Source: Candidatus Omnitrophota bacterium
GTDB lineage: Bacteria > Omnitrophota > Gorgyraeia > Tantalellales > Tantalellaceae
Length of the DNA stretch: 51,928 nt
Direction of reading: 5' to 3'
NCBI GenBank assembly: GCA_043816025.1
Contig: JBDRIH010000048.1
Coordinates: forward strand, 1-51,928
The translations under genes and the position numbers were made by a program. The notes under the pieces were generated by a model. The model had not been told where the DNA came from. It made no database searches and was given only the letters and a program-made list of their open reading frames with translations. Below, in pieces: positions 2,388-32,629 of this stretch; position 1 is the first letter of the stretch; the number at the start of each line of letters is the position of its first letter.

Positions 2388-2400
2388 GAAAGGACTTCTT

Positions 2401-3643: not shown

Positions 3644-3664
3644 AACTGTGGCAGAATAAAGCTA

Positions 3665-5380
3665 TTGCGAGGGACAATGTTCAGGGCACGCCAGTATTTG
3701 GTGTTTTTCTTTTTAATATCGCTCCTTTTGTCGCTTTTTATCAGGCTGTTTTATCTGCAGGTTCTCAACTTCCATAGATTTTCAGATATGGCATCCGAAC
3801 AACATAACAGGGTGTTTAAGACGGAGCCGCGCAGGGGCACCATATTCGATAGGTATATGGAACCCCTGGCCATAAATCTGGATGCCCCGAGCGTTTATTG
3901 TGACCCCAGGAACATGAAGGATAAAGAACGAACATCCCAGGTCCTCTCGGAGATCCTTCATCTTGACCGCGGGAAGCTTCTGGAGAGGTTTAACAGGGAC
4001 AAAGCGTTCGTATGGGTAGACCGCAAAATCGATCCGGAAACAGCGGAAAAGATAAAAAAACTGAACCTGTCCGGCATACATTTTTTCGATGAAAGCAAGC
4101 GGAACTATTCAAGCGATAACATGGCCGCGCATGTCATAGGATTCGTTGGTATCGACAACGATGGTCTTGAAGGCCTTGAGCTATTGCTTGATGAAAAGCT
4201 CAAAGGAAAACCCGGATGGAAGCACCTGGTAAGAGACGCAAAGAAAAGGGCGGTTCTGTTTAATGAAGAGGAATCGGTGCCCCCGCAAAACGGGTATAAC
4301 CTTATCCTGTCGATCGACAGCGTAATACAGTATATAGCGGAAGAAGAATTGGCAAAGATGGCACAGAAGTTTCACGCTTCCGCCGCTTCCGTTGTGGTCA
4401 TGGACCCGTTTTCCGGGGAGGTTCTGGCGTTGGCGAATTACCCCGATTACGACCTTAATACTTTTTCCGAGGTGCCTAAAGAGGCCCTTAAAAACGAGGC
4501 CGTATCCAGTGTTTTTGAACCGGGCAGCGTTTTTAAAATAGTTACGGCCAGCGCGGCCCTGAACGAAAAGCAGGTGGACCTCGATGATCGGTTCTATTGC
4601 GAGAAAGGGGAATACAAGGCAGGGGGGAGGATATTGCATGATTTTCATCCTTACGGGGAACTCTCTTTCCGCGAGGTAATAATAAAATCCAGCAATATCG
4701 GAACAGTTAAAGTGGCCCAGAAGCTTGGTCAGGGTACGGTTTATGATTATATCCAGAGGTTCGGTTTCGGAGAAAAGACCGGGATCGATCTGCCGGGGGA
4801 GGTAAGCGGTATAAGCAGGCCCCCCGCGGTATGGTCACGCAGCGATATAACTACCATACCGATAGGCCAGGGCATAGCGGTAACTCCCATTCAGATGGCA
4901 TGCGCCATAAGCGTCATCGCGAACGGCGGGTATTTGATGAAGCCTTATGTCGTGGATAGAATAGTGACATGGGAAGGCACGCTGTACGAGAAATTTGGAC
5001 CTGAGATAAAGAATAGAGTTTTAGAAGAGGAAACCTGCGAGAAGATGAAGGGTATACTGCGGCGCGTGGTAACCGAGGGTACCGGCAAACGTGCCAACTC
5101 CAAACTATATGATACGTGCGGGAAGACAGGCACCGCCCAGATGGTCAATCCCGAGGGCGGGTACTATCCGGATAAATACAATGCTACCTTTATAGGGTTC
5201 GCGCCGGCGGGGCGGCCCGCCATCAGTATAGTTGTAACCGCGCGTGATCCGCATCCTGTCCATTTCGGCGGAAGCGTCGCCGGACCGACATTCAAAAACA
5301 TAGCGGAACGCGTGCTGCAGTATATGGGCTCTGATGTTGCAGTGGCCTCCGAAAAACAAGCGGAAACTGTAAAAAAATGA
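3665..5380 (+). CDS. ftsI: Class B penicillin-binding protein FtsI (PBP3)
   Basis: RG.I.DR, EPGSVFK (SxxK), SSN and KTGTAQ motifs; dcw position; alternative start ATG 3677. Confidence 0.93.
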   Translation: MRGTMFRARQYLVFFFLISLLLSLFIRLFYLQVLNFHRFSDMASEQHNRVFKTEPRRGTIFDRYMEPLAINLDAPSVYCDPRNMKDKERTSQVLSEILHLDRGKLLERFNRDKAFVWVDRKIDPETAEKIKKLNLSGIHFFDESKRNYSSDNMAAHVIGFVGIDNDGLEGLELLLDEKLKGKPGWKHLVRDAKKRAVLFNEEESVPPQNGYNLILSIDSVIQYIAEEELAKMAQKFHASAASVVVMDPFSGEVLALANYPDYDLNTFSEVPKEALKNEAVSSVFEPGSVFKIVTASAALNEKQVDLDDRFYCEKGEYKAGGRILHDFHPYGELSFREVIIKSSNIGTVKVAQKLGQGTVYDYIQRFGFGEKTGIDLPGEVSGISRPPAVWSRSDITTIPIGQGIAVTPIQMACAISVIANGGYLMKPYVVDRIVTWEGTLYEKFGPEIKNRVLEEETCEKMKGILRRVVTEGTGKRANSKLYDTCGKTGTAQMVNPEGGYYPDKYNATFIGFAPAGRPAISIVVTARDPHPVHFGGSVAGPTFKNIAERVLQYMGSDVAVASEKQAETVKK

Positions 5381-6840
5381 ATAACCCGATAGATACATTG
5401 TTTGACCAGGAAGGATTCGGCAGGGATAAAATAAAAACAGATTCCCGCGAGATCAAACCCGGTGATATTTTTGTGGCTATAAAAGGTGCCGCCCATGATG
5501 GTCACGATTACGTCCGCGATGCATTAAAAAAGGGCGCGGAGTGCGCACTGTGCGAACATGAAATTTCCGGACTGGCGGAAGAAGACCGCGAGAAAATCAA
5601 GATCTTCGAGGATACCCGGATAGTTTTAGCAGATATAGCCAAACATATTTTTGCGGATCCATCGAACTCTCTTTTCGTTTATGGCGTTACCGGGACAAAC
5701 GGGAAGACCACTACGATATTTCTGATAGACGGCATTTTGAACAATGCCGCCAGGCCCGCGGGGCTGGTGAGCACGGTCTTTACAAAGGTCTCGGGAGATG
5801 TTCTCGAACGAGCGTCCATCACCACGCCGGATTCAGTAACACTGAACCGGCTTTTAGGGGAAATGGTTTCCAGCGGCAAGCAAGCCGCGGCTGTCGAGAT
5901 GTCAAGTCATGCGCTTGACCAGAAGAGGACCTGGGGGATAGAGCTGGATAGCGCTGTTTTTACCAATATAACGCCTGAACACTTGGATTATCATGGGGAC
6001 ATGTCGACATACCTTAAAGACAAGTCCAAGATCTTTCAGAATCTAAAGCCGGACGGGACAGGTGTATTAAACCAGGACGACTCTATGGTGATAAGTCTGG
6101 CGAAAACAATTGATTTTCCTAAGCTTGTGACTTTCGGGATGACAGATAATGCAGATGTCAGGGCTAGGAACGTTCGCTTGTCTATAGAGGGAATAGAGTT
6201 TGATCTGGTTGCCGGAAAACTCGGATCCACACGTGTATGCAGCAGGCTTATCGGCAAACATAATGTCTACAACATATTAGCTGCGGTGGCGGCTCTTTAC
6301 GACAGCGGGTTGAGTCTGGACGAGATAAGAGAAGGACTGGAAAAGGCTACGGCTGTACCCGGACGCCTGGACGCTGTACGGGCGCAGGCGCCTTTTAAAG
6401 TTTTTGTGGATTACGCGCATACGCCGGACGCGTTGGAAAACGTTTTGCTGTGTCTCGGTTCTCTTGCTGCGGGAAAACTCATTTGCGTGTTCGGATGCGG
6501 CGGAGACCGCGACAGGACAAAAAGGCCCGTGATGGGTAAAATAGCAACCGGGATATGCGACCGCGTGATACTTACAAGCGATAATCCAAGGACGGAAGAC
6601 CCCCAAGAGATACTGCGCCAGATCGAAAAGGGAGTGCTTAATAAAAATAACTATAGTATAATAAAGCGAAGACAAGACGCCATCCGGGAATCCTTGAAGA
6701 CGGCCGGTGAAGGCGATATAGTGATCATCGCCGGGAAGGGACACGAAGATTACCAGATCATCGGAGATTGCAGGACACATTTCGACGATAAAGAAACCGC
6801 CGGCGAAGTTTTAAGGGAACTCGGATATAGTATAATATGA
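5377..6840 (+). CDS. murE: UDP-MurNAc-tripeptide synthetase MurE (meso-DAP type)
   Basis: GVTGTNGKTT, EMSSH, DYAHTPD, DNPR and AGKGHE motifs. Confidence 0.95.
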   Translation: MNNPIDTLFDQEGFGRDKIKTDSREIKPGDIFVAIKGAAHDGHDYVRDALKKGAECALCEHEISGLAEEDREKIKIFEDTRIVLADIAKHIFADPSNSLFVYGVTGTNGKTTTIFLIDGILNNAARPAGLVSTVFTKVSGDVLERASITTPDSVTLNRLLGEMVSSGKQAAAVEMSSHALDQKRTWGIELDSAVFTNITPEHLDYHGDMSTYLKDKSKIFQNLKPDGTGVLNQDDSMVISLAKTIDFPKLVTFGMTDNADVRARNVRLSIEGIEFDLVAGKLGSTRVCSRLIGKHNVYNILAAVAALYDSGLSLDEIREGLEKATAVPGRLDAVRAQAPFKVFVDYAHTPDALENVLLCLGSLAAGKLICVFGCGGDRDRTKRPVMGKIATGICDRVILTSDNPRTEDPQEILRQIEKGVLNKNNYSIIKRRQDAIRESLKTAGEGDIVIIAGKGHEDYQIIGDCRTHFDDKETAGEVLRELGYSII

Positions 6841-8213
6841 TCAGACTTACCGTAAAAGATATAGCCCGGGCAACAGGCGGCGAGCTGTTCTCAGAAGACG
6901 CCGAGGCCGTTGTCAGCGGTTTTTCCGTTGATTCCCGCACTATAAAGCGCGGGCAAATTTTTATAGCGATAGGTGGCAGTAAATTTAACGGGCATGATTT
7001 TATCAGGGATGCCGCCGAGAAGCACGCATCGGGCCTGATCGTCGAACATTCCGCAGGGGCGGCCTGCCGGGGATTAACTGAACATGTTGTTTGTGTCGAG
7101 AATACCCGTTGGGCCATGGGTATGATAGCGCGAGAGATAAGAAAGCGCGCAAGTATCCCGGTCATCTGCATAACGGGTACTAACGGGAAGACGACCGTAA
7201 AAGACATTTTATCTCATATCCTTAGCGCCAGGCATAACGTCCTGAGGAGCGAGAAATCATATAACAATATTATCGGGGTGAGTCTGACATTGTTCGATAT
7301 GGATCCGTCGCACGATGTTGCTGTCGTGGAACTTGGGGCCAATCATCCCGGCGAGATTTCTAAACTGGCGGGGATAGCCGGGCCGCAAACGGCTATCATC
7401 ACCAATATCGGTGACGCACACCTCGAAGGCTTTATCGACAGGGAAGGGGTCTTTGCCGAGAAGATAAGCCTTTTGGATTCTCTTCCCGCCCAAGGGACGG
7501 TGTTTTTGAACAAGGACGACCGTATGCTGGCAATGGCCGACACCGGAGGTATCGCGAGAAAATATTACGGAACGTCGCCCGACTGCGATTTCAAAATTAC
7601 CGATCTTGCAGAAGGACCGGACGGGTACGATTTCTATCTCAACGAAAAGAGTTTCTTTCTTCCAATGGAAGGCGTACATAACGTTTATAACGCGGCGGCT
7701 GCGATTGCCGCGGCCGCTTGTTTCGGTATGGATTACGAGGAAATACGGAAAAGCTTGAAGGAAGTTTCTTTGCCGAAAATGCGTCTTGAAAAGCTGAAGA
7801 TAGAGGGCCTGCTGTTCATCAATGATGCATACAACGCCAACCCCGGTTCTTTTGAGTGCGCGCTTGAGGTTTTGCAGCACAGCGCCTCAGGCGGCGGGAA
7901 AGGCGTGGTGGCGGGTGATATGATGGAACTGGGAGATAAGAGCGATGAACTTCACCGTATAATAGGAAGGAATATTGCCGGTAAAGATATAGATTTTCTT
8001 ATAACACTGGGAAGCAGGGCCAGGCATATTGCGGAGGGCGCGATTGAAACGGGCATGGAGAAGGATCGAGTTCTGTGCGCGGAAAGTCATGAAGACGCCG
8101 CCAGAATGATTTGGCAGGTGGCCCGTCCCGAAGCGGTAGTGCTGCTAAAAGGCTCGCGTGCGGCAAAGATGGAGGAAGTGCTTAAGTGTTTTACCATGTC
8201 CTGTATCCTTTAA
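6837..8213 (+). CDS. murF: UDP-MurNAc-tripeptide:D-Ala-D-Ala ligase MurF
   Basis: ITGTNGKTTVK, NN.IG, DAYNANP, GDM.ELG and LKGSR motifs. Confidence 0.95.
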   Translation: MIRLTVKDIARATGGELFSEDAEAVVSGFSVDSRTIKRGQIFIAIGGSKFNGHDFIRDAAEKHASGLIVEHSAGAACRGLTEHVVCVENTRWAMGMIAREIRKRASIPVICITGTNGKTTVKDILSHILSARHNVLRSEKSYNNIIGVSLTLFDMDPSHDVAVVELGANHPGEISKLAGIAGPQTAIITNIGDAHLEGFIDREGVFAEKISLLDSLPAQGTVFLNKDDRMLAMADTGGIARKYYGTSPDCDFKITDLAEGPDGYDFYLNEKSFFLPMEGVHNVYNAAAAIAAAACFGMDYEEIRKSLKEVSLPKMRLEKLKIEGLLFINDAYNANPGSFECALEVLQHSASGGGKGVVAGDMMELGDKSDELHRIIGRNIAGKDIDFLITLGSRARHIAEGAIETGMEKDRVLCAESHEDAARMIWQVARPEAVVLLKGSRAAKMEEVLKCFTMSCIL

Positions 8214-9274
8214 GGGAATTCTGGTTCGGATTCAATGTCTTTAGGTATATAACGTTTCGCGCCAGCATGGCCGCGGTTACGTCTTTTGCGATATGCGTTA
8301 TATTCGGCCCGGCGATCATAAAACAGCTCAAGAAGTTTAATATAAGCCAGTATGTTAGAAAAGAACATGTCGAGAGCCTGTACGATCTTCATAAACATAA
8401 GGAAGGCACGCCGACGATGGGCGGTCTTCTCATTATCGTTTCCGTTCTTGTCTCATCGCTTTTATGGTGCAGTTTTGATAATGATTACATCTTGCTTGCG
8501 CTTGCCGGCATGATATGGCTTGGGGTCATAGGGTTTTTGGATGATTTCATTAAACTCCGCAACAAAAACGCCAAGGGCCTGCAGGCGGTAACCAAGTTGA
8601 TAGGTCAGGCGATACTTGCCCTGATTATAGGCATTTTTGTTATCAACAATAAAGCCATAGGATCGGGCCTGTATATTCCGTTTATTAAGAACGCCGTAGT
8701 TAATCTCGGCGTTTTTTATATACTTTTTATCCTCTTTGTGATCGTCGGCACCTCTAACGCTGTTAACCTGACGGATGGTCTTGACGGCCTGGCGATCGGT
8801 TGCGTGACCTTTATCGCCCTTACTTATGCGGTTATCAGTTACGTTACAGGGCATGCGGAGATCAGCAGGTATCTGCAGATTTTTTATCTGCCTGGTTCGG
8901 GGGAACTGACGGTTTTTTGCGCGGCGCTGGCTGGGGCCGGACTCGGGTTTCTGTGGTTCAACAGCCATCCTGCCACTATTTTTATGGGAGATACCGGGTC
9001 TCTCGCTCTGGGCGGATCGATCGCGATCGTAAGCGTTCTGATCAAAAAGGAAATCCTGCTTTTTATCGCCGGAGGCGTGCTTGTCGCGGAGTCCGCGTCG
9101 GTTATCTTGCAGGTACTTTCGTTCAAGTTAAGAAAGAAGCGTCTTTTTCTCATGGCGCCGATCCATCATCATTTCCAGATAAAAGGATGGCACGAGTCCA
9201 AGATTACCATACGCTTCTGGATTATAGCGGCCATCCTTGCCCTTTTGAGTATGGCCACGCTAAAAGTTCGATAG
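8186..9274 (+). CDS. mraY: Phospho-MurNAc-pentapeptide transferase MraY
   Basis: TPTMGG, DDFIK, NAVNLTDGLDGL, FMGDTGS and MAPIHHHF motifs. Confidence 0.97.
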   Translation: MFYHVLYPLREFWFGFNVFRYITFRASMAAVTSFAICVIFGPAIIKQLKKFNISQYVRKEHVESLYDLHKHKEGTPTMGGLLIIVSVLVSSLLWCSFDNDYILLALAGMIWLGVIGFLDDFIKLRNKNAKGLQAVTKLIGQAILALIIGIFVINNKAIGSGLYIPFIKNAVVNLGVFYILFILFVIVGTSNAVNLTDGLDGLAIGCVTFIALTYAVISYVTGHAEISRYLQIFYLPGSGELTVFCAALAGAGLGFLWFNSHPATIFMGDTGSLALGGSIAIVSVLIKKEILLFIAGGVLVAESASVILQVLSFKLRKKRLFLMAPIHHHFQIKGWHESKITIRFWIIAAILALLSMATLKVR

Positions 9275-9301
9275 CAGCACGTAGTAGGGGCAATTTTTAC
9301 T

Positions 9302-10675
9302 ATGATCGATATTAAAGGAAAGAAAGTACTGGTTGTCGGTTTGGGCGCAAGCGGGTATGCCGCTGCTGAGTTGCTTTTCCGCGAAGGGGCCAGGGTCAGC
9401 ATCACTGAAATGACCGACACAATGGAGGCAAGACAGTACCTGGAGAAGCTCGCGCCTTATCATCCGCGATTTGAGCTCGCCGGACATACGGAAAGTTTTT
9501 GCGGTGATTGCGAACTTGTGGTCACCAGTCCGGGGGTTGATGTCCGGGCGTTGCCTTTATCCCGTGCCGGGGAGAGACAAATTCCCATTATAGGAGAAAT
9601 GGAATTAGGATCCTGGTTCTGCCGCGCCCCGATTGTTGCTGTAACCGGGACCAATGGTAAAAGTACCACTGTGGAACTCATCGGCAGGATACTTTCTCTT
9701 TCAGGCAGACACACGGTGGTGTGCGGGAATATAGGCAATCCTTTAAGCGGGGAAGTCAGCGGTCTTACCGAAGAAAGCGTGGCGGTAGTAGAGGTAAGTT
9801 CCTTTCAGCTTGAGACGATAAAATATTTTAAACCCTCGATCGCAGTTCTCTTAAATATATCGGAGGATCATTACGAGCGCCACACCGGATACGACAATTA
9901 CAAGGCGGAAAAGTTCAAGATATTTATGAACCAAGCAGAAAGCGATTGGGCGGTTCTCCATTCTTGTTTTTCCGGCGAGGCGATGACAAGCAGCATAAAG
10001 AGCCGGCTTGTGTTTTTTGGTCCGGAGACAGGCGGAGCCGTTGTGGGGGAAAGAGGAATAAGCGTAGAGTGGGGCGGCAAACAGGAGGTCATCATTAAAA
10101 GGGAGGAGGTTCCGTTAAAAGGTCGGCACAACCTGGATAACGTTGCATGTTCTGTTCTCGTTTCCCGCCTCATGGGCGTGGACAACCGCAATATCCGTGA
10201 AGGGATAATGACTTTCAAAGGACTGAACCATCGGTTCGAAAAAATAGGCTTTTTTCGCGGCGTGGAATTTATCGACGACTCGAAAGCCACAAACATAGAC
10301 GCAACCCGGAGAGCCCTTGAATCAATGGATAAAAAAGTGGTCCTTATAGCGGGCGGCAGGGATAAAGGCGGGGACTATCTTTCCGTTTTGCCGGTAGTGA
10401 AAGAAAAGGTAAAAGCTGTGGTGGTTATCGGAGAGGCCCGTGACAGGATAAAAGATGCTTTTTCCCCCGCGGTCCAGATACTTATGGCGGAGAACATGGC
10501 TGATGCGGTAAAGACGTCCTTTAGCGTGGCCGGAGAGGGCGAGGCTGTAATGCTCTCTCCCATGTGTTCCAGTTTTGATATGTTTTCCAGCTACGCCGAA
10601 CGCGGGGAAGCGTTCCAGCGGGAAGTTGCTAACCTGGTTCAAGCTGCAAGCCATAGGCCTCAAGCTCAGGGATGA
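9302..10675 (+). CDS. murD: UDP-MurNAc-L-Ala:D-Glu ligase MurD
   Basis: GLGASG, TGTNGKST, EVSSFQL, DDSKATN and SP.CSSFD motifs; the last ~11 codons run into a heptamer repeat. Confidence 0.95.
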   Translation: MIDIKGKKVLVVGLGASGYAAAELLFREGARVSITEMTDTMEARQYLEKLAPYHPRFELAGHTESFCGDCELVVTSPGVDVRALPLSRAGERQIPIIGEMELGSWFCRAPIVAVTGTNGKSTTVELIGRILSLSGRHTVVCGNIGNPLSGEVSGLTEESVAVVEVSSFQLETIKYFKPSIAVLLNISEDHYERHTGYDNYKAEKFKIFMNQAESDWAVLHSCFSGEAMTSSIKSRLVFFGPETGGAVVGERGISVEWGGKQEVIIKREEVPLKGRHNLDNVACSVLVSRLMGVDNRNIREGIMTFKGLNHRFEKIGFFRGVEFIDDSKATNIDATRRALESMDKKVVLIAGGRDKGGDYLSVLPVVKEKVKAVVVIGEARDRIKDAFSPAVQILMAENMADAVKTSFSVAGEGEAVMLSPMCSSFDMFSSYAERGEAFQREVANLVQAASHRPQAQG

Positions 10676-10701
10676 AGCCCGAAGCCTGTAGCTTGTAGCC
10701 A
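10640..10701. repeat. Self-complementary degenerate heptamer array
   Basis: caagctg caagcca taggcct caagctc ... gaagccc gaagcct gtagctt gtagcca; related to 17072-17148. Confidence 0.7.
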
Positions 10702-10765
10702 ACTTCAGTGAATCGTGAATGGTCTGTGGTCTGGAGTTTGGGTTCTGGTTGGGAATTTGAAAAAG

Positions 10766-11851
10766 ATGAATAACGATGCGAAAATAATACTCCTGGTGGT
10801 ATCCCTCTTGATAATGATAGGGATAGTTATGATGTATTCCTCCAGCGCCGTCTATGCGCACGGGAACTACGATGACAGTATGTATTTTGCAAAAAGACAC
10901 CTGGTGTATTTAACGGCGGGCCTTGTGGTCGCGATATTATGCATGGCGGTCCCGGTCGGCAAGATAGCCGACAGCGCCAGAGGGGTGATGGTTTTTTTTC
11001 TTATACTTCTGGTTATCGTTCTTATCCCGGGTATCGGCAGGGAAATCGCTGGTGCGCGCAGGTGGATACGTTTTTTCGGAGTAGGTTTTCAGCCGTCTGA
11101 GATGGCGAAAATCGCGTTAATAATATACCTTGCCGATCTGACCTCGCGGAAAAGGCATCTTATGCAGAATTTTAAATACGGTTTTCTTCCGCCTTTTTTC
11201 ATTATCGGGCTAACAGGGGGGTTGGTCCTTATGGAACCGGACATGGGCACGTCTGTATCTATATTTTTTATAGGACTTGCTATACTGTTTGTCTCAGGCG
11301 CGCGTCTCAGACATCTCGCATTTATCACAATGGGCATACTTCCCGCGTTGGGCCTGGCGGTGATCTACGAACCTTACCGCCTCAGGCGCATGCTGACATT
11401 TTTCAATCCATGGAAGGATGCCAGGGGGTCCGGTTTTCAGCTTATCCAGTCGTTCATAGCACTGGGATCCGGAGGTCTTTTGGGGGTCGGGCTCGGCCAG
11501 TCGAAGCAGAAACTTTTTTACCTTCCTGAATCGCACACCGATTTTATATTCTCCATAATCGGAGAAGAGCTGGGATTTTTAGGTTCCGCCGCCGTGCTTG
11601 TACTGTTCGCCGTTCTTATATGGTTTTCTTTGAGGATTTCTTTTAAGCTCAGGGACTACTTTGCTTCGCGTGTAGTGCTTGGTATAAGCGTGATGATAGC
11701 TTTTGAGGTTATAGTGAATATCGGCGTGTCTACAGGAATGTTGCCGACGAAAGGGCTTCCTCTGCCGTTTGTAAGTTATGGCGGAAGTTCCCTTGTAAGT
11801 CATCTGGCGGCAGCGGGCCTTATTTTTAACATGGCAAGAGGAGCTGAATAA
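10766..11851 (+). CDS. ftsW: SEDS peptidoglycan polymerase FtsW
   Basis: GARRWI, FQPSE.AK, EPD.G, LPESHTDFIF and SYGGSS motifs; ATG 10766 preferred because the upstream extension is repeat-derived. Confidence 0.95.
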   Translation: MNNDAKIILLVVSLLIMIGIVMMYSSSAVYAHGNYDDSMYFAKRHLVYLTAGLVVAILCMAVPVGKIADSARGVMVFFLILLVIVLIPGIGREIAGARRWIRFFGVGFQPSEMAKIALIIYLADLTSRKRHLMQNFKYGFLPPFFIIGLTGGLVLMEPDMGTSVSIFFIGLAILFVSGARLRHLAFITMGILPALGLAVIYEPYRLRRMLTFFNPWKDARGSGFQLIQSFIALGSGGLLGVGLGQSKQKLFYLPESHTDFIFSIIGEELGFLGSAAVLVLFAVLIWFSLRISFKLRDYFASRVVLGISVMIAFEVIVNIGVSTGMLPTKGLPLPFVSYGGSSLVSHLAAAGLIFNMARGAE

Positions 11852-11852
11852 T

Positions 11853-12956
11853 ATGCGGGTTATTCTGGCAGCGGGCGGCAGCGGCGGGCATATCTTTCCT
11901 TCGGTTGCCCTGGCTGCAGAACTCGAGAAAGCCGGGATTGAAAAGATATTTTTCATTTCGAGTAAGCGACGTCTGGACAAGAACATCTTAAGAAACAGCA
12001 GGCACAGTTGTTTTTTTCTGTCCGCCAACCCCATGCCTTTGAGATTCAACCCGTTCCGTCTTGCGGTTTTCGCTGGAAAACTTTTTATAGACACTATAAT
12101 GTCTATGTATCTTATCGCGAAGTTGCGTCCGGATGTTGTGGTGGGTTTCGGGGGGTACTCTTCCGGGGCCATCGTTGCCGCGGCAAAGATGTTTAATGTC
12201 CCCGTTATCATACACGAGCAGAACCTTCTACCAGGCAGGGCAAATAGGATTTTAAGCCGCTTCGCCGATCGCGTGGCGGTCAGCTTTAAAGATTCAGCCG
12301 GGTATTTTACGCGTGCCGCCGGAAAGGTGTTTTATTCCGGGAACCCCCTGCGGCTTGATATTCTCTCCGGCGACAGGACGGAATCAGCGCGGCGTCTTGG
12401 ATTAGATCCGGAGAAGACGACTGTTTTGATAATGGGGGGTAGTCAGGGATCCTCGTTTTTAAACAGGATCGCTTCCGAAAGCGCCCGTTTTATAAAGGAA
12501 CAGAAAAGCGACGAAGTGCAGTTTATTCACCTTACAGGGAACAAAGACTATGAATATGTGCGACAGTTTTACGAAAAAAACAAGATCGCAGGTAAGGTTT
12601 TTTCGTTTCTTGAAAGGATAGACGAGGCTTATGCCGCCAGCGATCTGGCTATTTCAAGAGCCGGGGCCGCTGCCGTGTTTGAGCTGGCGTTTTACGCTAA
12701 ACCAATGATACTGGTCCCGTATCCAAATCCTAAAAACAACCAGCGGTTTAACGCGATGTATTTTTCGCAAGTGGGAGCTGCTGTCTACAAGGAGGAGAAC
12801 GATCTCTCGGCGGATGATCTGGCCGGCGAGGTCATGAGTATATTAACGGACGCGCAGCGACGTGATCGCATTTCGCAAGCTGCCGGAAGTCTGAGCGCTC
12901 CCGCAGCCGGTAGGATTTTGGCAGAAGAAGTTATTAACTTGGCGGAGAAAAACTGA
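11853..12956 (+). CDS. murG: Lipid II GlcNAc transferase MurG
   Basis: GGSGGHIFP, HEQN, GNPLR, GGSQG and SRAGA motifs. Confidence 0.96.
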   Translation: MRVILAAGGSGGHIFPSVALAAELEKAGIEKIFFISSKRRLDKNILRNSRHSCFFLSANPMPLRFNPFRLAVFAGKLFIDTIMSMYLIAKLRPDVVVGFGGYSSGAIVAAAKMFNVPVIIHEQNLLPGRANRILSRFADRVAVSFKDSAGYFTRAAGKVFYSGNPLRLDILSGDRTESARRLGLDPEKTTVLIMGGSQGSSFLNRIASESARFIKEQKSDEVQFIHLTGNKDYEYVRQFYEKNKIAGKVFSFLERIDEAYAASDLAISRAGAAAVFELAFYAKPMILVPYPNPKNNQRFNAMYFSQVGAAVYKEENDLSADDLAGEVMSILTDAQRRDRISQAAGSLSAPAAGRILAEEVINLAEKN

Positions 12957-12969
12957 TAAAATCTATATT

Positions 12970-14343
12970 ATGAAAAAGATTCATTTCATAGGAATCGGTG
13001 GGATAGGGATGAGTGCCCTCGCAGACATACACCTGGCTAAAGGCGGTATCGTAACAGGGTCTGATTTGAGACCAAACAGTCTGACGGACGAACTGTGTAA
13101 AAAAGGAGCCGTTATATATAAAGGTCATGACGCGGAGAATATCCCGGAAGACGCGGATCTTGTGGTGCGGTCCACCTGTATTCGCGATGAGAATCCCGAG
13201 ATAAAGAAGGCAAGACACTTGGGCGTGCCCGTTATTTTAAGAGGCGAGATGCTTAAAGAGCTTATAGAGGAGGTTCCTTTATCCATAGCGGTTACCGGGA
13301 CACACGGCAAGACGACTACAAGCGCACTCGTAGCGCACATAACGGAACATTGCGGCAAGGACCCAACAGTCGTTGTGGGCGGAGAGATGTCAGGTTTCGG
13401 GGGCAACGCAAAATTCGGCCGTGGTAATATGATCGTCTCGGAAGTCGACGAAAGCGACGGGTATTTCCGGAATATCAGCGCGCAATACGCCGTGGTAACG
13501 AATATAGAAAGAGAGCACATGGAGAACTACGGTTCTTTGGAAAAACTCATAGACGCTTACAGGGAATTTATCGGCAGGATCCCCGCGGACGGATTTTTGG
13601 TATTCAACGGGGAAGATCCCGTGCTTGGACGTATTGCCGGTGACATCGCACCCGGAAAGCTAAGTTTTGGAATCGACGGCGATTTCGACGTGACGTGCCG
13701 CCGCCATGTTCATGCTAATGCGATAACGTTCGATCTCCTCGTGCGCGGCAAAAATTACGGGAGGGTTTCCAGTCCTCTTATAGGGCGTTACAACCTGATG
13801 AATATACTGGCCGCTATAGCCGTGTGTATGCAAGTAGGCCTTGATTTTGACCGTATTGCCGAAGCGGTCAGTTCGTTTCATGGAGTTAAAAGGAGGTTTG
13901 ACTCTGTGGGCAGGATAGGCAACATAGAGGTGATAGAGGATTATGCCCATCATCCGACAGAGTTACGGTCTGTAATCGCCGCGGCCAGGGACCGCTCTTC
14001 GGGCAGAATAGTGACGATTTTTCAGCCGCACCGGTACAGCAGAACACGCGACCTGATGCGCGAATTCTCTGATTGTTTTTACGATTCGGATATCCTTATA
14101 TTAACTGACATATATTCCGCTGACGAAGACGTGATCGAAGAGGTTGCGGTAAGGGATATGTATGAAATGATTGACAGGGAGAGGTTCCAGACGCTTAATC
14201 TTGTGGAAAAAAAGGATATCCCGGGATTTGTCTCAGGACTTGTTCGGCAAAACGATACGATCCTGGTTCTGGGAGCCGGGGATATCAGCGAGATATCAGG
14301 CAATTTGGTCAAGAGAATAGAAGAGAAAACCGATGCTCGTTAA
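12970..14343 (+). CDS. murC: UDP-MurNAc:L-Ala ligase MurC
   Basis: IGIGGIGMS, GTHGKTTT, DESD, DYAHHPTE and FQPHRYSR motifs. Confidence 0.96.
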   Translation: MKKIHFIGIGGIGMSALADIHLAKGGIVTGSDLRPNSLTDELCKKGAVIYKGHDAENIPEDADLVVRSTCIRDENPEIKKARHLGVPVILRGEMLKELIEEVPLSIAVTGTHGKTTTSALVAHITEHCGKDPTVVVGGEMSGFGGNAKFGRGNMIVSEVDESDGYFRNISAQYAVVTNIEREHMENYGSLEKLIDAYREFIGRIPADGFLVFNGEDPVLGRIAGDIAPGKLSFGIDGDFDVTCRRHVHANAITFDLLVRGKNYGRVSSPLIGRYNLMNILAAIAVCMQVGLDFDRIAEAVSSFHGVKRRFDSVGRIGNIEVIEDYAHHPTELRSVIAAARDRSSGRIVTIFQPHRYSRTRDLMREFSDCFYDSDILILTDIYSADEDVIEEVAVRDMYEMIDRERFQTLNLVEKKDIPGFVSGLVRQNDTILVLGAGDISEISGNLVKRIEEKTDAR

Positions 14344-15253
14344 AGAAGTTCGCGATAAGTTGCTCCAGCTGTGCAAAAAGTACGGCGACAGTGTTGTTTT
14401 TGATCACCCGCTTTGCGATCACAGTACTATATCGATAGGAGGGAAAGCCGCCGCGTGGTATGTGCCGTTTTCGCTTGATGGTCTGTGTCGGACGAAGACC
14501 TTTCTCGACGACTCAGGTATAAGGACGATCCCTATGGGTAACGGAAGCAATATATTGATCCCGGATGAGGGATTGGACGCGGTTGTTATAAACCTGTCGG
14601 GCACTATTTTTAAAGAGATAAAGATAGAAGGAAACACGGCTGTTGCCGGTGCCGGTGCCAAATTGGGGACGCTTGTGTCCAATTGCTGCACAAAGGGTCT
14701 GGCGGGACTGGAAGGACTTATAGGAATTCCGGCTACCGTCGGCGGCGCCCTTGTCACGAACGCCGCGTACCGCAGCGCGATCAGCGAACGTCTATCGAGG
14801 GTGTTGGTTCTTAGCGAGGGAGCTAAGGCGGAGTGGGTAGAAAAAAAAGATATACAGTTCGGATACCGCTTTTCTTCCATTGACAGGGGGGAAATCATAC
14901 TTCAGGCGGTTTTTCAGCTTGATGAAGCAAACCCGGATGAGCTGAAGAAGAAACTAAAGCATTATTTTTTTGAAAAGATGGAGAAGCAACCTCTCACCCG
15001 GAAAACCTTAGGATGTATTTTTAAAAACCCCACAGAAGAGAAACATCCCAGCGGAAGACTTATAGAGGAAGTCAGCATGAAGGGGTACCGGAGCGGCGCG
15101 GCCGAGGTCTCAGAAAAACATGCTAACTTTATAATAAACACCGGCGGAGCAAGTTCGCGGGATGTGACGAATCTCATGGACGAGATACGTGTAAAAGTGC
15201 GGGACAAGTTTTCCATAGAGCTTGAGACGGAGATAGAAGTCTTAGGAGCTTAG
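14333..15253 (+). CDS. murB: UDP-N-acetylenolpyruvoylglucosamine reductase MurB
   Basis: G.GSN.L, GIPATVGGA..NA, G..FKNP and HANFIIN motifs. Confidence 0.94.
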   Translation: MLVKEVRDKLLQLCKKYGDSVVFDHPLCDHSTISIGGKAAAWYVPFSLDGLCRTKTFLDDSGIRTIPMGNGSNILIPDEGLDAVVINLSGTIFKEIKIEGNTAVAGAGAKLGTLVSNCCTKGLAGLEGLIGIPATVGGALVTNAAYRSAISERLSRVLVLSEGAKAEWVEKKDIQFGYRFSSIDRGEIILQAVFQLDEANPDELKKKLKHYFFEKMEKQPLTRKTLGCIFKNPTEEKHPSGRLIEEVSMKGYRSGAAEVSEKHANFIINTGGASSRDVTNLMDEIRVKVRDKFSIELETEIEVLGA

Positions 15254-15264
15254 CGGAGACATAA

Positions 15265-16212
15265 ATGGATAAAGAACTTGATATGCTTAAAAAGTATAAG
15301 ATCGGCGTGCTTGCCGGCGGAAGCTCCAGCGAAAGAGAAATAAGCCTTAAAAGCGGGAAAGCCGTCTTCGGGGCATTGCAGGGGAAAGGTCTGAACACGG
15401 TCTTCATCGATGTGGAAGAAGATAATTTCTCTTCACTGGTCGACCGCCCAGGTATAGATGTGGCTTTTATCGCTCTTCACGGCAAGTTCGGAGAGGACGG
15501 GACTGTTCAGAGAATTCTGGATGAAAGAAGCGTTCCTTATACGGGGTCCGGTCCGGAACCGTCACGCCTCGCACTTGACAAAGAGGCCTCGAAAAAAATA
15601 TTCGAAGATGAAGGGTTATGTGTTCCTGAATACAGGGTCGTGCGCGCGGGGGAAGATGTTTCACGTTTGGATATCACCTTTCCATGTGTGGTCAAACCCA
15701 GGTACGAGGGATCAAGCATAGGGCTGTCCATCGTTCCTTCGAGGGACCTTATGCGCGGGGCGATAGACAGGGCGGCCCGGTTTGGAGAAAGGATTATTAT
15801 AGAAAAATTTGTTTTCGGCAGAGAAATAACGGTGGGGGTACTTAACGACAGAGCATTGCCCGTTGTGGAGATTATTGCGGCTGGCGGGGTGTATGATTTC
15901 AGCGCAAAATACTATTCGGACGATACGGAGTATGTTGTGCCGGCAAAACTTGATAAAGATGAGTATCTTCGCGCGCAGGAGACGGGTTTAAAAGCGCACA
16001 GGGCTCTTGGGTGCGAAGGTTTTTCGAGAGTGGATTTAAGGTTGTCGGACCGGGGCGATATCTTTGTTCTGGAAGTTAACACGATTCCCGGTCTTACCGA
16101 GAGAAGCCTGCTTCCGATGGCTGCGAAAGCGGAAGGCGTGGATTTTTCCGAGTTATGTGTTAAGATGCTTTTGGGAGCGATCTCAAAAAACGGCAAAGTA
16201 GGGCACGTTTAA
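15265..16212 (+). CDS. ddl: D-alanine--D-alanine ligase
   Basis: GG.S.EREISL.SG, LHG.FGEDG, GSS.G and LEVNTIPG motifs. Confidence 0.96.
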   Translation: MDKELDMLKKYKIGVLAGGSSSEREISLKSGKAVFGALQGKGLNTVFIDVEEDNFSSLVDRPGIDVAFIALHGKFGEDGTVQRILDERSVPYTGSGPEPSRLALDKEASKKIFEDEGLCVPEYRVVRAGEDVSRLDITFPCVVKPRYEGSSIGLSIVPSRDLMRGAIDRAARFGERIIIEKFVFGREITVGVLNDRALPVVEIIAAGGVYDFSAKYYSDDTEYVVPAKLDKDEYLRAQETGLKAHRALGCEGFSRVDLRLSDRGDIFVLEVNTIPGLTERSLLPMAAKAEGVDFSELCVKMLLGAISKNGKVGHV

Positions 16213-16260: not shown

Positions 16261-17058
16261 GTGGCAGGTAAAGGAACTTCAAAGAAAACGAAAAAGAAAA
16301 AACGCATAAGCGAGTTTTTATCCGGGAAGATTTTTTCGATAAAGCTGATTATTATTTTTATTTCTAGTCTAGTAGTGTTGGCAGGCGCCTTTTTAGGAGC
16401 TAAGTACCTTTTTCTTAACAGTCAGTTTTTTACGATTAAAGAGATCGAGGTAAACGAGTCTCGTGGCAGCTCTTTCAGAGAAGGCAAACAAAAGCTCGAA
16501 AAGTTCTATGTCGGACAGAACATATTTACTGTTGACCTGAAACAGGCACAGGCGCTGATCAAAAAAGATTTTCCGGAATTAAGGAAGATCGAGGTAAGAA
16601 GAAATCTGCCAGATGAACTGGAGATCGATATTCTTTCGAGGGAACCCATAGCCGTCATAGCCGCCGGTAAAGGTATTGTTATAGACAGGGAGGGAGTGGT
16701 CCTTGCCCTCGGAGAAGGTGCCGGAGCTTTGGTGAAGATAAAGGGGATCAAATTTTTTCTCATCAGGCCTTCAAGGGGGGAAAAGATCAAAAGCGGTATT
16801 CTGAACAAGGGACTGGTGCTACTTGAGGGCCTCCGCAAAAAGATGCGTAAAAATGAAAAGGACATAGAATACATGGATGTTTCCGACCGCAACAACATAA
16901 TACTCGGCATTCGTGGCGTAACGATAAAGATGGGAACGGACGATTTTTCCAGAAAAATCGATGAGTTAAAAGAAATATTGAATGACTCCAACATAAACTT
17001 GAAAGACATAAATTACATCGACCTCAGGTTTGAGGATCCGGTTATTTCGCCGAAATGA
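16261..17058 (+). CDS. ftsQ: Cell division protein FtsQ/DivIB
   Basis: Basic N-tail, TM helix, POTRA-like region (FTIKEIEV...VRRNLPDEL.I) and C-terminal YIDLRF. Confidence 0.88.
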   Translation: MAGKGTSKKTKKKKRISEFLSGKIFSIKLIIIFISSLVVLAGAFLGAKYLFLNSQFFTIKEIEVNESRGSSFREGKQKLEKFYVGQNIFTVDLKQAQALIKKDFPELRKIEVRRNLPDELEIDILSREPIAVIAAGKGIVIDREGVVLALGEGAGALVKIKGIKFFLIRPSRGEKIKSGILNKGLVLLEGLRKKMRKNEKDIEYMDVSDRNNIILGIRGVTIKMGTDDFSRKIDELKEILNDSNINLKDINYIDLRFEDPVISPK

Positions 17059-17148: not shown

Positions 17149-17160
17149 ACAAGGAGAACA

Positions 17161-18213
17161 ATGAGTAAACGTTTTGCCGCCTTGAATGTGGGGTCCGGCG
17201 AGATCACCGCCGTTGCCGCAAGATGGAATAAGAACAGGGATTATATAATAGAAGGTTTCTGTCGCGTCAGGTCGAAAGGTTTCCGCGAAGGCATGGTTGC
17301 GGATGCCGCCATGGCAACCGACTCCATAGCCGAGGCGTTAAAAAAACTTAAGGAACGGACGGGTAAAAAAATCCAGGATGTATATGCTGGGGTAAGTTCC
17401 ACATCTATAAAGGTAATACCGTCCAGCGGGGTACTGCTGCTTTCCAAGTACGGCAGGGAGATCTCCGAGAGGGACATTAGAAAGTGCATGCAGATAGGTT
17501 CGACCATCAAAATACCGCTTGATAAAGAACCGTTGCACAGAATCGTGCGAGGTTTTTCTATCGACGAGGAGAAAGAGATAAAGAATCCGCTGAACCTGGA
17601 GGGGGTAAAGCTGGGAGTTGACATGAATATCCTGATGATCAATTCATCCACGCTGCGCAACATGTCAAAATGCATCTCCCACGCGGGATTCGTCCCTGCA
17701 GGATTCGTATTTTCGGGTCTTGCCGCCGCCTACAGGGTTCTCGCCGAGGAGGACAGACAGACGGGTGTCGTCCTGATGGATATCGGCAAGGACCTTATGG
17801 AAATAATGGTATTTTGCCGCGGGATATTGACAAGTTGCAAAGTTTTTCCGGTCGGGACGGATGAATTACTGTCAAAAGACGGCAGCATCAACCTTGACAG
17901 TTTAGAGAAAACGCTCCCGCAGATCGTTTCATTACCGGGATGGGGGAAGGTCCGCAAGGTTATGGTGATCGGCGAAGGAGCGCTTATGGATAATCTGACC
18001 GAGTCATTGGAGGGACTTTTCGGGCTTTCCGTTACGGTCGGGACGTGTATCGTGAAACCGTTTGAAGAACTTCCTCCTGAAAGAACGGGATATATCGGCA
18101 GCCTGGGAATCCTGGATTATCTCCAGCAAGAAAACCAGAGACAACGCCGTGACGGCAACATAATAAAAAGAATCCTCGATAGTATCCTCACCTTCCTCAA
18201 CCACTACTTCTAA
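17161..18213 (+). CDS. ftsA: Divergent, internally deleted FtsA-like protein
   Basis: Follows ftsQ. Has SKGFREGMV.D, a 1C domain (IKNPLNLEG), VL.EEDRQTGV..MDIG and a C-terminal amphipathic helix. Only 350 aa, with degenerate ATP motifs. Confidence 0.85.
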   Translation: MSKRFAALNVGSGEITAVAARWNKNRDYIIEGFCRVRSKGFREGMVADAAMATDSIAEALKKLKERTGKKIQDVYAGVSSTSIKVIPSSGVLLLSKYGREISERDIRKCMQIGSTIKIPLDKEPLHRIVRGFSIDEEKEIKNPLNLEGVKLGVDMNILMINSSTLRNMSKCISHAGFVPAGFVFSGLAAAYRVLAEEDRQTGVVLMDIGKDLMEIMVFCRGILTSCKVFPVGTDELLSKDGSINLDSLEKTLPQIVSLPGWGKVRKVMVIGEGALMDNLTESLEGLFGLSVTVGTCIVKPFEELPPERTGYIGSLGILDYLQQENQRQRRDGNIIKRILDSILTFLNHYF

Positions 18214-21194: not shown

Positions 21195-21995
21195 ATGGAA
21201 GGATTGATTGTAGGTATAATAGGTTGCGGTAATATGGGTAGCGCCATAGCCAGGGGGATGGTCGATAGAGGGATAGCATCCGGTGATTCTATCTTTTTAT
21301 ATGATAAAGATATAAAAAAGGCGGCCCAGCTGGCGGAGAAGACAGGGTGCGTCCAGAAAGATCTATCCCAGCTGGTGAGAAGTTCTGATTTTCTGGTGAT
21401 AGCGGTCAAACCTCAGGATTTTGATGTCCTGGCGGGGGAGATTGCCGGAGATATAGCCGAACAGACTATAGTATCGGTGATGGCGGGTATCGGCATAAGC
21501 GCCATTACGGGTAAACTTGGCAGGGAGCTTCCCGTGGTCAGGGCCATGCCTAATATGGCGGCTTTTGTCGGGGAAAGCATAACCTGTATTTCATGCAGCG
21601 GTATGGTTAATAATACCGAAAAAGTGAAGAATATCTTCAGCGGTATCGGCAAGGTCCTGGAACTTGACGAGAAGCTTCTGGATGGCGCAACAGCCCTCTC
21701 CGGCAGCGGCCCCGCGTACCTTTTTTACCTGGCGGAGGCGATGATAGACGCGGCGAGAGAAGCGGGTTTTGATGAGGTGACAGCGAAGGAGCTGGTCGTG
21801 CAGACGCTTTACGGTTCCGCTGCGCTTTTGAAGGGCACGGGAAGCTCCCCGGAAGATCTGATCAGAAAAGTCGCCTCAAAAGGCGGGACCACGGAAGCGG
21901 CGTTGTCGGTTTTTGACGAAAAAGACCTTAAATCCCACATAAAGGCCGCTATCCTGAAGGCAAAGCAGCGGTCCGAGGAGTTATCGCGAGGGTAA
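21195..21995 (+). CDS. proC: Pyrroline-5-carboxylate reductase
   Basis: IIGCGNMG, AVKPQ, RAMPN, SGSGPAY and VASKGGTT motifs. Confidence 0.96.
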   Translation: MEGLIVGIIGCGNMGSAIARGMVDRGIASGDSIFLYDKDIKKAAQLAEKTGCVQKDLSQLVRSSDFLVIAVKPQDFDVLAGEIAGDIAEQTIVSVMAGIGISAITGKLGRELPVVRAMPNMAAFVGESITCISCSGMVNNTEKVKNIFSGIGKVLELDEKLLDGATALSGSGPAYLFYLAEAMIDAAREAGFDEVTAKELVVQTLYGSAALLKGTGSSPEDLIRKVASKGGTTEAALSVFDEKDLKSHIKAAILKAKQRSEELSRG

Positions 21996-30220: not shown

Positions 30221-30291
30221 TTTCACAGTTTAGTTAACAGAGGGTTACAACCTACCGTTAAAAATATACAGTGTTAGCCGGCATTCTACAC

Positions 30292-31353
30292 ATGATAAGA
30301 CAGCAAATAGCAAAAATTTTTGACAATTTTCTCGGGCTTTTTTCCAGCGATATGGGAATAGACCTGGGGACTGCTTCCACGCTTGTCTATCTTAAAAATG
30401 AAGGTATTGTTCTATGTGAACCTTCGGTTGTGGCTATAGAAGCGGGGACCTCGAATGTTCTGGCCGTAGGAGAAGAGGCCAAGCGCATGTTGGGAAGAAC
30501 CCCGGGTAATATAATAGCGATAAGGCCCATGAGAGACGGGGTTATCGCCGATTTCGAAATCACAGAGGCAATGCTGAGATATTTCATAAAGAAAGTCCAC
30601 AATTCCCGCAGATTAGTCCGTCCGCGGGTCGTTATAGCTATCCCATCAGGTATTACAGAGGTAGAGAAACGCGCGGTCAGGGATTCTGCCCTCCACGCGG
30701 GTGCCAGAGAGGTTTATATGCTGGAGGAGCCGGTAGCGGCTTCGATCGGTGTCGGTCTTCCGATACAGGAACCTTCGGGGAACATGATAATAGATATAGG
30801 CGGCGGAACCACAGAGATGGCGGTGATATCTCTGGCCGGTGTCGTGTTTTCCAAATCTATCCGCATCGGCGGGGATGAGATGGACGAAGCGATCATAAAT
30901 TATCTGAAGAGAACTTATAATCTTATGATAGGGGAAAGAACCGCTGAAGAAGTCAAGATAAGAATAGGTTCCGGCTATCCCATCGAAGAAGAGATGACGA
31001 TGGATGTCAGGGGCCGCGATATTGTCGCGGGGCTTCCCAAGATGATTACCGTAACCAGTGAGGAGATTCGGGAAGCACTTTGCGAACCGATCGCCCAGAT
31101 AGTAGAGGCGGTAAGGATCACACTGGAAAGAACGCCTCCGGAATTGTCAGCAGACCTTATAGAAAAGGGACTGATACTGTGCGGCGGCGGAGCGCTTTTA
31201 AGGGGGCTGGATAAGCTTATAGCCGAGGAGACCGGTCTGCCCGTTCATCTGGCGGATGACCCCTTAACAGCTGTGGCGCTTGGTACTGGAAAGGTGCTGA
31301 GTGAGCTGAGGTACCTCAAGAGGTTGACGATTGCACCCAGCCTGCACAAATAA
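30292..31353 (+). CDS. mreB: Rod shape-determining protein MreB
   Basis: [21 protein letters not shown] and GGGALL motifs; start uncertain (30271/30292). Confidence 0.97.
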
Positions 31354-31369
31354 GTAATAACTGTTCGAT

Positions 31370-32146
31370 GTGCCTAGACTTTTTACCAAAAATAGAATCT
31401 GGCTACTTATCGGATGTATCCTTCTAGCGATACTTCTGTTTTCTTTCATCCCTCACTTTTCCTCCGGCATTAAAAATTTTTCCCTCAAAGCATTTTCGAT
31501 TCCAATAAGGGCTTGTTCCCGTATTGGTCAATATTTTAGCAGCAAACGCCTTCTTGTTCAGGAGAACAGCTTTCTGCATAAAAGGGTCGGAGATCTCTCT
31601 CTGGAGGTCGGACAGCTTAAAGAGCTGAGCAGCGAGAACGAGCGTCTCCGTGCGCTTTTGGTCTTTAAGGAGAGAACGAGATTCGATACGATTTCCGCCG
31701 AGGTTATCGCACGTAATCCCAATGACTGGATAGGGTCGTTCGTTATAGATAAGGGAAGCGAGGACGGCATACGGAAGAACTCAGCCGTTTGCTCCGCCAA
31801 GGGCTTGCTGGGAAAGGTAACCGAACCCGAGGCAAGGACCAGTTCCGTAATACTCATAACACACCCCGGTTTCAAGGCCGGCGGTATTATCAAGGATACG
31901 CGGATCAACGGCATTGTTGTGGGTTCAGGAAAAGGCACGGCCCGGATGCTTTATATCCCCATAGACGCGGAAGTACGAAAAGGCGAGATTGTTATAACCT
32001 CGGGTTTCAGCCGGGTTTTCCCAAAAGGCATAACTATAGGTGAGATCGTTTCTGTAGGCAGGAGCAAAACGGGACTGTATAAATATGCGGTAATTAAACC
32101 CTCCGCGAATCTCTTCGACCAGGAAGAAGTCTTGTGTATAAAATAA
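31370..32146 (+). CDS. mreC: Rod shape-determining protein MreC
   Basis: ENERLR.LL, IDKGS.DG and TSG...FPKGI motifs. Confidence 0.93.
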   Translation: MPRLFTKNRIWLLIGCILLAILLFSFIPHFSSGIKNFSLKAFSIPIRACSRIGQYFSSKRLLVQENSFLHKRVGDLSLEVGQLKELSSENERLRALLVFKERTRFDTISAEVIARNPNDWIGSFVIDKGSEDGIRKNSAVCSAKGLLGKVTEPEARTSSVILITHPGFKAGGIIKDTRINGIVVGSGKGTARMLYIPIDAEVRKGEIVITSGFSRVFPKGITIGEIVSVGRSKTGLYKYAVIKPSANLFDQEEVLCIK

Positions 32147-32619: not shown

Positions 32620-32629
32620 ATAACTTGTC

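Follow-up and report, generated by a model that had tools for sequence, protein, structure and literature searches.

We analysed a stretch of 51,928 nucleotides of DNA from Candidatus Omnitrophota bacterium (contig JBDRIH010000048.1, positions 1 to 51,928 of the forward strand, hereafter the window), in which the gene ftsA encodes a genuine FtsA that has lost about 55-60 residues of its subdomain 2B, in a bacterial phylum where FtsZ itself is absent. The loss of FtsZ is known; what is new is that 2B erosion after this loss is recurrent, that it is fixed in the family of the window, and that it is accompanied in this family by the loss of the ATP motifs. The gene and its relevant parts are the following.

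17161..18213, forward strand: ftsA, short form without subdomain 2B (open reading frame, TIGR01174 match, structural matches, orthologues in 24/24 genomes of the same family)
17151..17156, forward strand: Shine-Dalgarno sequence AAGGAG, 4 nt upstream of the ftsA ATG (read from the sequence)
17182..17202, forward strand: degenerate phosphate-1 motif LNVGSGE, opposite LDIGTA/LEIGTA of solved FtsA, its glycine being variable within the family
17404..17634, forward strand: subdomain 1C (SHS2 insert), residues 82-158 (PF02491, conservation)
17779..17802, forward strand: degenerate phosphate-2 motif MDIGKDLM in place of VDIGGGTM (alignment)
17857..17955, forward strand: subdomain 2B remnant, residues 233-265, 33 amino acids (phmmer alignment, anchor-glycine count, AlphaFold model)
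17965..17982, forward strand: degenerate adenosine motif VIGEGA in place of LTGGGA (alignment)
18160..18210, forward strand: C-terminal amphipathic helix, residues 334-350, with the end ..HYF (hydrophobic moment; helix 334-349 in the model)

The ftsA open reading frame (ORF) is intact and codes for 350 amino acids from an ATG start. It scored 172.5 bits with the NCBIfam ftsA model TIGR01174, below the equivalog cut-off of 175.85, and the match covers residues 5-240 only, facing positions 2-234 of a profile of 371. The Pfam FtsA model PF14450 gave 29.1 bits for a cut-off of 31.8. Both scores fall short because the C-terminal half of the profile match is missing. The 1C domain was recognized by Pfam SHS2_FTSA (PF02491, 56.8 bits, residues 82-158). 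An AlphaFold model of the protein was built on 64 homologues (predicted local distance difference test, pLDDT, 90.7; predicted template modelling score, pTM, 0.87), and its best Foldseek match was V. maritimus FtsA (7q6f_A, E 1e-31), on which it superposed with a Z of 36.9 (VIA-align) and a root-mean-square deviation (rmsd) of 2.3 A over 318 of 382 chain residues. Solved FtsA structures gave Z values of 30-37, compared with 19-25 for PilM (24.6 at best) and about 18 for MreB; for canonical FtsA they were 31-37 (rmsd 2.3-3.3 A, 316-322 residues). PF02491 and the superposition thus both indicate an actin-like fold with a 1C (SHS2) insert in place of 1B. The protein does not belong to PilM (TIGR01175 / PF11104), as PilM_2 reached only 17.4 bits for a cut-off of 27, and a separate true PilM is encoded at 49047-50063 (170.8 bits), followed by PilN/O-like genes. 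The closest database homologues bear the name Candidatus Omnitrophota in their sources, and the nearest ESM Atlas clusters are in agreement. We conclude that the window ORF is a true orthologue of FtsA, from a bacterium of the Omnitrophota.

The loss of 2B was observed both by alignment and in the model. A phmmer search against all solved chains aligned residues 6-234 of the window FtsA with 11-237 of X. poinarii FtsA (7q6g), and residues 267-296 with 332-361, this second stretch being weak (-0.9 bits); the interval between the two stretches counts 33 residues in the window FtsA versus 95 in 7q6g. In the AlphaFold model, strands 222-229 and 266-271 are separated only by helices 233-236 and 245-256 (4 and 12 residues). 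In a full-length relative of 410 amino acids (L042), modelled in the same way (pLDDT 88.2), this place is taken by a pair of helices, a beta-hairpin and a helix of 25 residues, which make up a canonical 2B. The window FtsA therefore has no 2B with an FtsZ C-terminal-peptide site; the subdomain reduced in its family is the one that carries this site and one half of the longitudinal contact in filaments.

The same phmmer alignments place NVGSGE opposite DIGTA/EIGTA, DIGKDL opposite DIGAGT/DIGGGT and IGEG opposite TGGG, so that the conserved forms of the phosphate-1, phosphate-2 and adenosine motifs are missing from the sequence. Within the family of the window, neither the Gly of phosphate-1 nor the Gly-Gly of phosphate-2 is conserved. 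At the C-terminal end, the six top helical hydrophobic-moment windows (14 residues each) all lie within residues 329-348, and together with the modelled helix they point to a predicted amphipathic membrane-targeting helix, closed by an ending [DE]xYF that is common to nearly all Omnitrophota FtsA, long or short. We measured conservation as the mean top-residue frequency in 64 short forms, and found 0.70 for 1C, 0.74 for the adjoining helix and strand (161-195), 0.55-0.63 for the rest of 1A and 2A, and 0.41, the lowest value, for the 2B remnant. Subdomain 1C, the 1A helix next to it and the amphipathic helix at the C-terminus remain strongly conserved. An earlier note on this DNA, made by a model from the sequence, had described an intact ORF with a ribosome-binding site, only 33 residues at 17857-17955 with 2B missing, degenerate ATP motifs, and a 1C domain and C-terminal helix that were kept; all of this agrees with what we found. 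The structure prediction that it had proposed likewise bears out the absence of 2B.

Next to this stripped FtsA, the genome of the window (1.275 Mb, 103 contigs, 87.5% complete) yielded no FtsZ: TIGR00065 had no match at E<=1 and the tubulin model PF00091 none at E<=10. For comparison we used an FtsZ-bearing control phylum, reached via a weak locus match to the window FtsA (L009). Two real FtsZ from this phylum, searched by tblastn against the whole assembly, gave best E values of 0.36 and 7.8, and the FtsA from the same loci, as a positive control, matched the window ftsA at 1e-33. No second FtsA was found in the genome, the other matches of the ftsA model being MreB, PilM, a 651-aa actin-fold ORF (probably DnaK) and a marginal one (E 0.04). 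SepF, ZapA and MinC had no match, ZipA_C gave only 13.5 bits, which is a chance score, and PspA/IM30 was not found in this genome either. FtsB (contig C17, 62.6 bits) and FtsK (contig C30, 231 bits) are present. MinD, like PspA/IM30, was considered as an alternative division factor and rejected, its only matches being ParA-like (54 and 41 bits for a cut-off of 212.9).

The absence of FtsZ extends to the whole phylum. No FtsZ above the cut-off was obtained in 41 genomes, the window genome and 40 relatives. In three of them (G022, G015, G002) the ftsZ model gave matches of 54-56 bits (L006 1222-2517, L007 1318-2517, and L008), and the two that were scanned, L006 and L007, are TubZ-like (PF00091 45-47 bits plus TubZ-like_C). 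These TubZ-like genes adjoin secretin, DUF362/ferredoxin or TrkA genes, have no division and cell wall (dcw) context, and do not occur in the window genome. In an even sample of Omnitrophota (301 genomes, completeness >=80%), none had FtsZ at E<=0.001, including 0/270 high-quality genomes, and the same search was positive in 61/61 genomes of the control phylum and in 13/14 named control genomes. Of 201 Omnitrophota genomes sampled for FtsA, 195 gave a match at E<=1e-20, mostly full length. The six genomes without FtsA at this threshold are G027 and G190 (f4), G162 and G171 (f31), G096 and G097; some Omnitrophota lineages may have lost FtsA too, like Planctomycetota and Chlamydiota. Omnitrophota are thus without FtsZ but have FtsA, FtsQ, FtsB, FtsK, FtsW and FtsI, and a candidate FtsL recognized by its position only.

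Part of this has been reported. A passage of Pende et al. 2021 states that FtsZ is absent from Omnitrophica, which implies that FtsA is kept there. In a passage of Rivas-Marin et al. 2016 (PMC5147048), FtsZ is assigned to one genome then labelled Omnitrophica, two others not being judgeable, and in a passage of Henriques et al. 2025 (PMC12283558) Omnitrophota are grouped with phyla of highly conserved dcw genes. The main text of Seymour et al. 2023 mentions neither FtsZ, FtsA nor the divisome (PMC10066038). The loss of FtsZ in Omnitrophota is thus in print yet barely noticed. We found no description of a naturally 2B-less FtsA in the literature searched, which leaves aside supplements, possibly with presence/absence tables.

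In order to follow the deletion among relatives, we took two glycines as anchors (G232 and G271 of the window FtsA) and counted the residues that separate them in 76 FtsA sequences, with the following results.

f1, the family of the window, 23/23 sequences: 37-40 residues (window FtsA 38)
f18 and f19: 41-45 residues
f9: 18-40 residues
f29: 29 residues
f8: 31 residues
f56, of a different class: 32 residues
f14: 42 residues
f15, four sequences (L035, L080, L056, L062): 69 residues in two of them, 80 in one and 102 in one
36 full-length sequences, including three non-Omnitrophota outgroups: 88-102 residues

Within the family of the window the short form is fixed: colinear copies of 347-360 aa with 38-66% identity occur in 24/24 genomes, with a single in-frame stop, at a contig edge, and 79 further short forms from databases (42-91% identity) are nearly all 346-355 aa long, most of them 347-352 aa. 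The f15 deletions are nested and affect the beta-hairpin part of 2B, and this length series looks like erosion at an intermediate stage. In most FtsZ-less relatives FtsA is full length (404-459 aa) and has the canonical 2B motif, and full-length Omnitrophota FtsA retain the 2B helices GGxxxTxxIAxxL...AExxK. Matches stopping at the 2B boundary were seen in none of 143 FtsA-bearing genomes of the FtsZ-bearing control phylum (one of these genomes being unpublished), and in 24 of the 150 matches listed for Omnitrophota, beside which there are 48 further matches. We also built a quick gene tree with IQ-TREE, from which the 2B columns were omitted. Here f1, f9, f18 and f19 fall in one starred clade (Shimodaira-Hasegawa-like approximate likelihood ratio test, SH-aLRT, 97), together with one full-length sequence whose long branch joins at a fork that is not resolved; all further short forms are placed outside this clade. 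Parsimony on this tree gives five changes in 2B state, of which the starred branches force at least two, and the deletion boundaries vary between short-form lineages. The count of independent deletions is based on this quick-tree parsimony, the differing boundaries and taxonomy codes.

As FtsZ is absent from the whole phylum and FtsA is mostly full length, the loss of 2B is a later event. We conclude that the 2B deletion is a later, lineage-specific and repeated erosion, fixed in the family of the window and in related families. The FtsZ site shows signs of an earlier decay. R300 and E303 of E. coli FtsA (R301 and E304 in T. maritima) reportedly contact the FtsZ tail. We counted the R300 position from the 7Q6D alignment and checked it with R286. 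The chains of E. coli, Vibrio, Xenorhabdus and S. aureus have Arg there, as have 3/3 non-Omnitrophota outgroups, and only 2 of 27 full-length Omnitrophota FtsA have retained it. Judged from these sequences, the site may have decayed before 2B was lost, even where 2B persists.

These results bear unequally on the further proposals of the earlier note. The genome-wide search for FtsZ and tubulin that it had proposed was negative in the 87.5%-complete genome, as it was for a second FtsA and for a SepF or ZipA anchor. Its suggestion that this FtsA marks an independent or intermediate loss of FtsZ has to be abandoned, as no genome of the phylum sample was positive for FtsZ and the absence is already stated in the passage of Pende et al. 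2021. A co-occurrence of the 2B deletion with the absence of ftsZ, to be looked for across the clade, did not appear one-to-one, most FtsZ-less relatives having kept 2B. Its overall interpretation survives in that the FtsZ-binding subdomain is indeed gone from the FtsA of an organism without FtsZ; the timing does not, since the loss of FtsZ is ancient and phylum-wide.

Comparison with known systems helps to define what remains of the protein. Canonical FtsA (E. coli, V. maritimus, T. maritima; 7Q6D, 7Q6F, 4A2A) shares with it the actin-like fold with 1C, the position after ftsQ and the C-terminal amphipathic helix, but has a full 2B with the FtsZ-tail site and the IIA-IIB contact, intact nucleotide motifs and FtsZ as a partner. 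Full-length Omnitrophota FtsA such as that of L042 shares the FtsZ-less phylum, the gene position, the [DE]xYF end and an adjacent basic FtsQ tail, whereas its folded 2B is kept, its phosphate-1 motif is mostly LDIGSxK, and the Arg at the R300 position is found only rarely. PilM (2YCH, 5EOU) has an FtsA-like fold, with lower structural and sequence similarity to the window protein, and its binding of the PilN tail in the 1A-1C cleft, described in a passage of PMC7613929, is our working model here. Chlamydiota and Planctomycetota, which like Omnitrophota are PVC bacteria, have no FtsZ and have kept peptidoglycan and late divisome genes (passages of PMC5147048 and PMC12283558), a combination that is also found in Omnitrophota. 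They differ in that FtsA and SepF were also lost, according to passages of Pende 2021 and Henriques 2025 (PMC12283558), whereas Omnitrophota keep FtsA (195/201).

We infer, with somewhat better than even confidence, that the short FtsA is an FtsZ-independent membrane adaptor whose 1C/1A surface acts on FtsQLB-FtsWI. A passage of Radler et al. 2022 (PMC9098913) places the binding of the C-terminal peptide of FtsZ in subdomain 2B of FtsA, near R286. Passages of Nierhaus et al. 2022 (PMC7613929) describe FtsA protofilaments with a longitudinal IIA-IIB contact, double filaments joined laterally by IC, and a basic cytoplasmic tail of FtsN that binds the IA-IC cleft of FtsA much like PilN in PilM. 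Without 2B, the canonical longitudinal contact and the holding of the FtsZ tail are impossible, and the cleft, 1C and the membrane helix are kept. In the proposed mechanism, the short FtsA would be held at the inner face of the membrane via its C-terminal helix and would serve as an adaptor largely independent of nucleotide, either non-filamentous or differently assembled. By analogy with FtsA-FtsN and PilM-PilN, its 1A-1C cleft would bind the short cytoplasmic tail of at least one bitopic divisome protein, and this binding would couple or activate septal wall synthesis by FtsQLB-FtsWI without a Z-ring. The subdomain 2B would have been lost after the much older loss of FtsZ, once the FtsZ-binding surface was free of selection. 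FtsQ begins with MA(R/K)KK and a basic run before its membrane helix in most Omnitrophota families sampled (window 16261-16340; L011-L086), and its tail is a possible ligand of the FtsA cleft; since basic juxtamembrane tails are common, we regard it as a mere lead. MreBCD-PBP2-RodA are also encoded in the window. MreB takes on a division role in Chlamydia.

Several observations weigh against the adaptor and the history proposed for it. The incompleteness of the window genome (87.5%) limits the absence of FtsZ there, and a very divergent tubulin-like protein could escape both hidden Markov model (HMM) and BLAST searches. Sister families with the same deletion (f18, f19, f9) retain LDIGSxK and TGG, so that a loss of nucleotide binding would be specific to the family of the window. 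Finally, most FtsZ-less Omnitrophota keep a folded 2B, which must therefore still be of use to them, in polymerisation for instance; its loss in the window FtsA may then reflect a changed function and not relaxed selection alone.

Other explanations were weighed against the adaptor. The short FtsA might itself be a division scaffold that polymerises through a 1C-1C lateral contact or a new longitudinal one and forms a membrane ring or patches organising septal synthesis. The lateral contacts made by 1C in FtsA double filaments, as described in a passage of PMC7613929, and the place of 1C among the best-conserved parts here are in line with this idea, and the presence of FtsA in 195 of 201 FtsZ-less genomes suggests a central role. 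However, the IIA-IIB longitudinal contact is impossible without 2B, and the family of the window has only degenerate forms of the nucleotide motifs by which polymerisation is normally supported, which makes a scaffold of this kind unlikely. A tubulin- or FtsZ-like partner might instead have been too divergent to detect or left unassembled, and be bound through another surface of FtsA; the TubZ-like proteins in 3/41 related genomes and the 87.5% completeness of the window genome could be read in this way. Since these TubZ-like genes stand in unrelated contexts and are missing from 38/41 genomes, including that of the window, since FtsZ is found in 0/270 high-quality genomes and tblastn was negative, and since ZapA, MinC, SepF and ZipA are missing as well, we hold such a hidden partner for very improbable.

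The likeness to PilM (Z 24.6) and the type IV pilus cluster in the same window raise the question of whether the protein has moved from division to another membrane machine, such as a pilus or a secretion platform, in a PilM-like role. We give this very little credence, because the ftsQ-ftsA order at the dcw end is kept across the phylum, the organism has its own PilM-PilN-PilO set and the PilM_2 score (17.4 bits) is well below its cut-off of 27. That ftsA is a functionless relic decaying after the loss of FtsZ would account for the loss of 2B and of the ATP motifs and for a TIGR01174 score just below the cut-off (172.5 vs 175.85), but is hardly credible for an intact ORF with a strong ribosome-binding site, a colinear copy in 24/24 genomes of the same family, a length nearly constant in 79 homologues, domain-specific conservation and a confidently predicted fold.

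How bacterial division proceeds without FtsZ is still a puzzle, and work on it has so far been confined to Chlamydiota and Planctomycetota, neither of which has FtsA. A phylum that in the genomes searched is without FtsZ but keeps FtsA, and in which several lineages then trimmed 2B, separates roles of FtsA that are beyond the reach of mutagenesis in E. coli. The short FtsA, the full-length FtsA without the Arg at the R300 position and canonical FtsA form a contrast set for asking which activities switch on septal wall synthesis. Beyond the adaptor reading, we put forward more tentatively, as a possibility that may well prove wrong, that Omnitrophota are a natural experiment in which FtsA has outlived FtsZ: its core job, to activate or organise FtsQLB-FtsWI, would need only the membrane anchor, 1C and the 1A-1C cleft, neither ATP nor canonical polymerisation. 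The repeated erosion of 2B would show this, and the loss of the nucleotide-binding glycines in the family of the window points in the same direction. On this view the short FtsA would be its minimal form, the hub of an undescribed division machine in free-living or epibiotic bacteria.

The features that neighbour ftsA in the window are given below.

1506..16212, forward strand: the rest of the dcw cluster, mraZ, rsmH, ftsL candidate, ftsI, murE, murF, mraY, murD, ftsW, murG, murC, murB and ddl (NCBIfam matches)
3281-3643, forward strand: ftsL candidate, 120 aa (position and transmembrane/coiled-coil features only)
16261..17058, forward strand: ftsQ, with a basic cytoplasmic N-terminal tail (Pfam POTRA_1 and FtsQ_DivIB_C)
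21195..21995, forward strand: proC, synteny landmark after ftsA (TIGR00112, 249.5 bits)
30271..35514, forward strand: mreB-mreC-mreD-mrdA-rodA elongasome cluster (NCBIfam matches)

The ftsA gene is placed directly after ftsQ at the distal end of the complete dcw cluster. The gene ftsQ is also present in the ftsA-bearing loci of relatives, and the ftsQ-ftsA order at the dcw end is kept across Omnitrophota. Downstream of ftsA, the window has two ORFs without annotation, then proC. No ftsZ follows, as the earlier note had said. Of the neighbours that it had listed, ftsI, ftsW, ftsQ and mreBCD-mrdA-rodA were recognized, ftsL being a candidate by position and transmembrane/coiled-coil features only. 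In 31 related loci proC is found no more than 1.5 kb beyond ftsA on the downstream side, and in 16 loci of the same family no other sizeable ORF comes between the two on the strand of ftsA. Because proC follows ftsA directly or nearly so in relatives, ftsZ is cleanly absent from its usual slot.

The two ORFs between ftsA and proC in the window, 18537-19334 and 19502-20641 on the forward strand, code for 265 and 379 aa with hydrophobic, signal-peptide-like N-termini, and had no Pfam or NCBIfam match. The stretch at 18-20 kb has a G+C content of 0.435, compared with about 0.47-0.50. These ORFs look like a recent insertion. A conserved gene downstream of ftsA that would replace ftsZ was considered and rejected, since neither ORF occurs downstream of ftsA in any related locus, where proC is found instead. 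Upstream, short direct repeats such as TGTAGCC / CAAGC(C/T) occur several times in the ftsQ-ftsA spacer (17059-17150), and a terminator-like hairpin (17038-17062) spans the point where ftsQ ends. The ORF given for rsmH (2508-3284) has a TTG start, and its alignment with the RsmH profile (310 positions) begins only at position 48, so that the true start may be upstream or in another frame.

No RNA sequencing runs were listed for the window, and 0.12 of the sampled words were found in one groundwater metagenome DNA run, which has no bearing on expression or habitat. At 38835-51322, downstream of a GGDEF protein, the window carries a cluster of type IV pilus genes. It encodes PilT, two PilB-type ATPases in tandem (574 and 567 aa), PilC and a TPR protein, and includes PilM-PilN-PilO-like genes.

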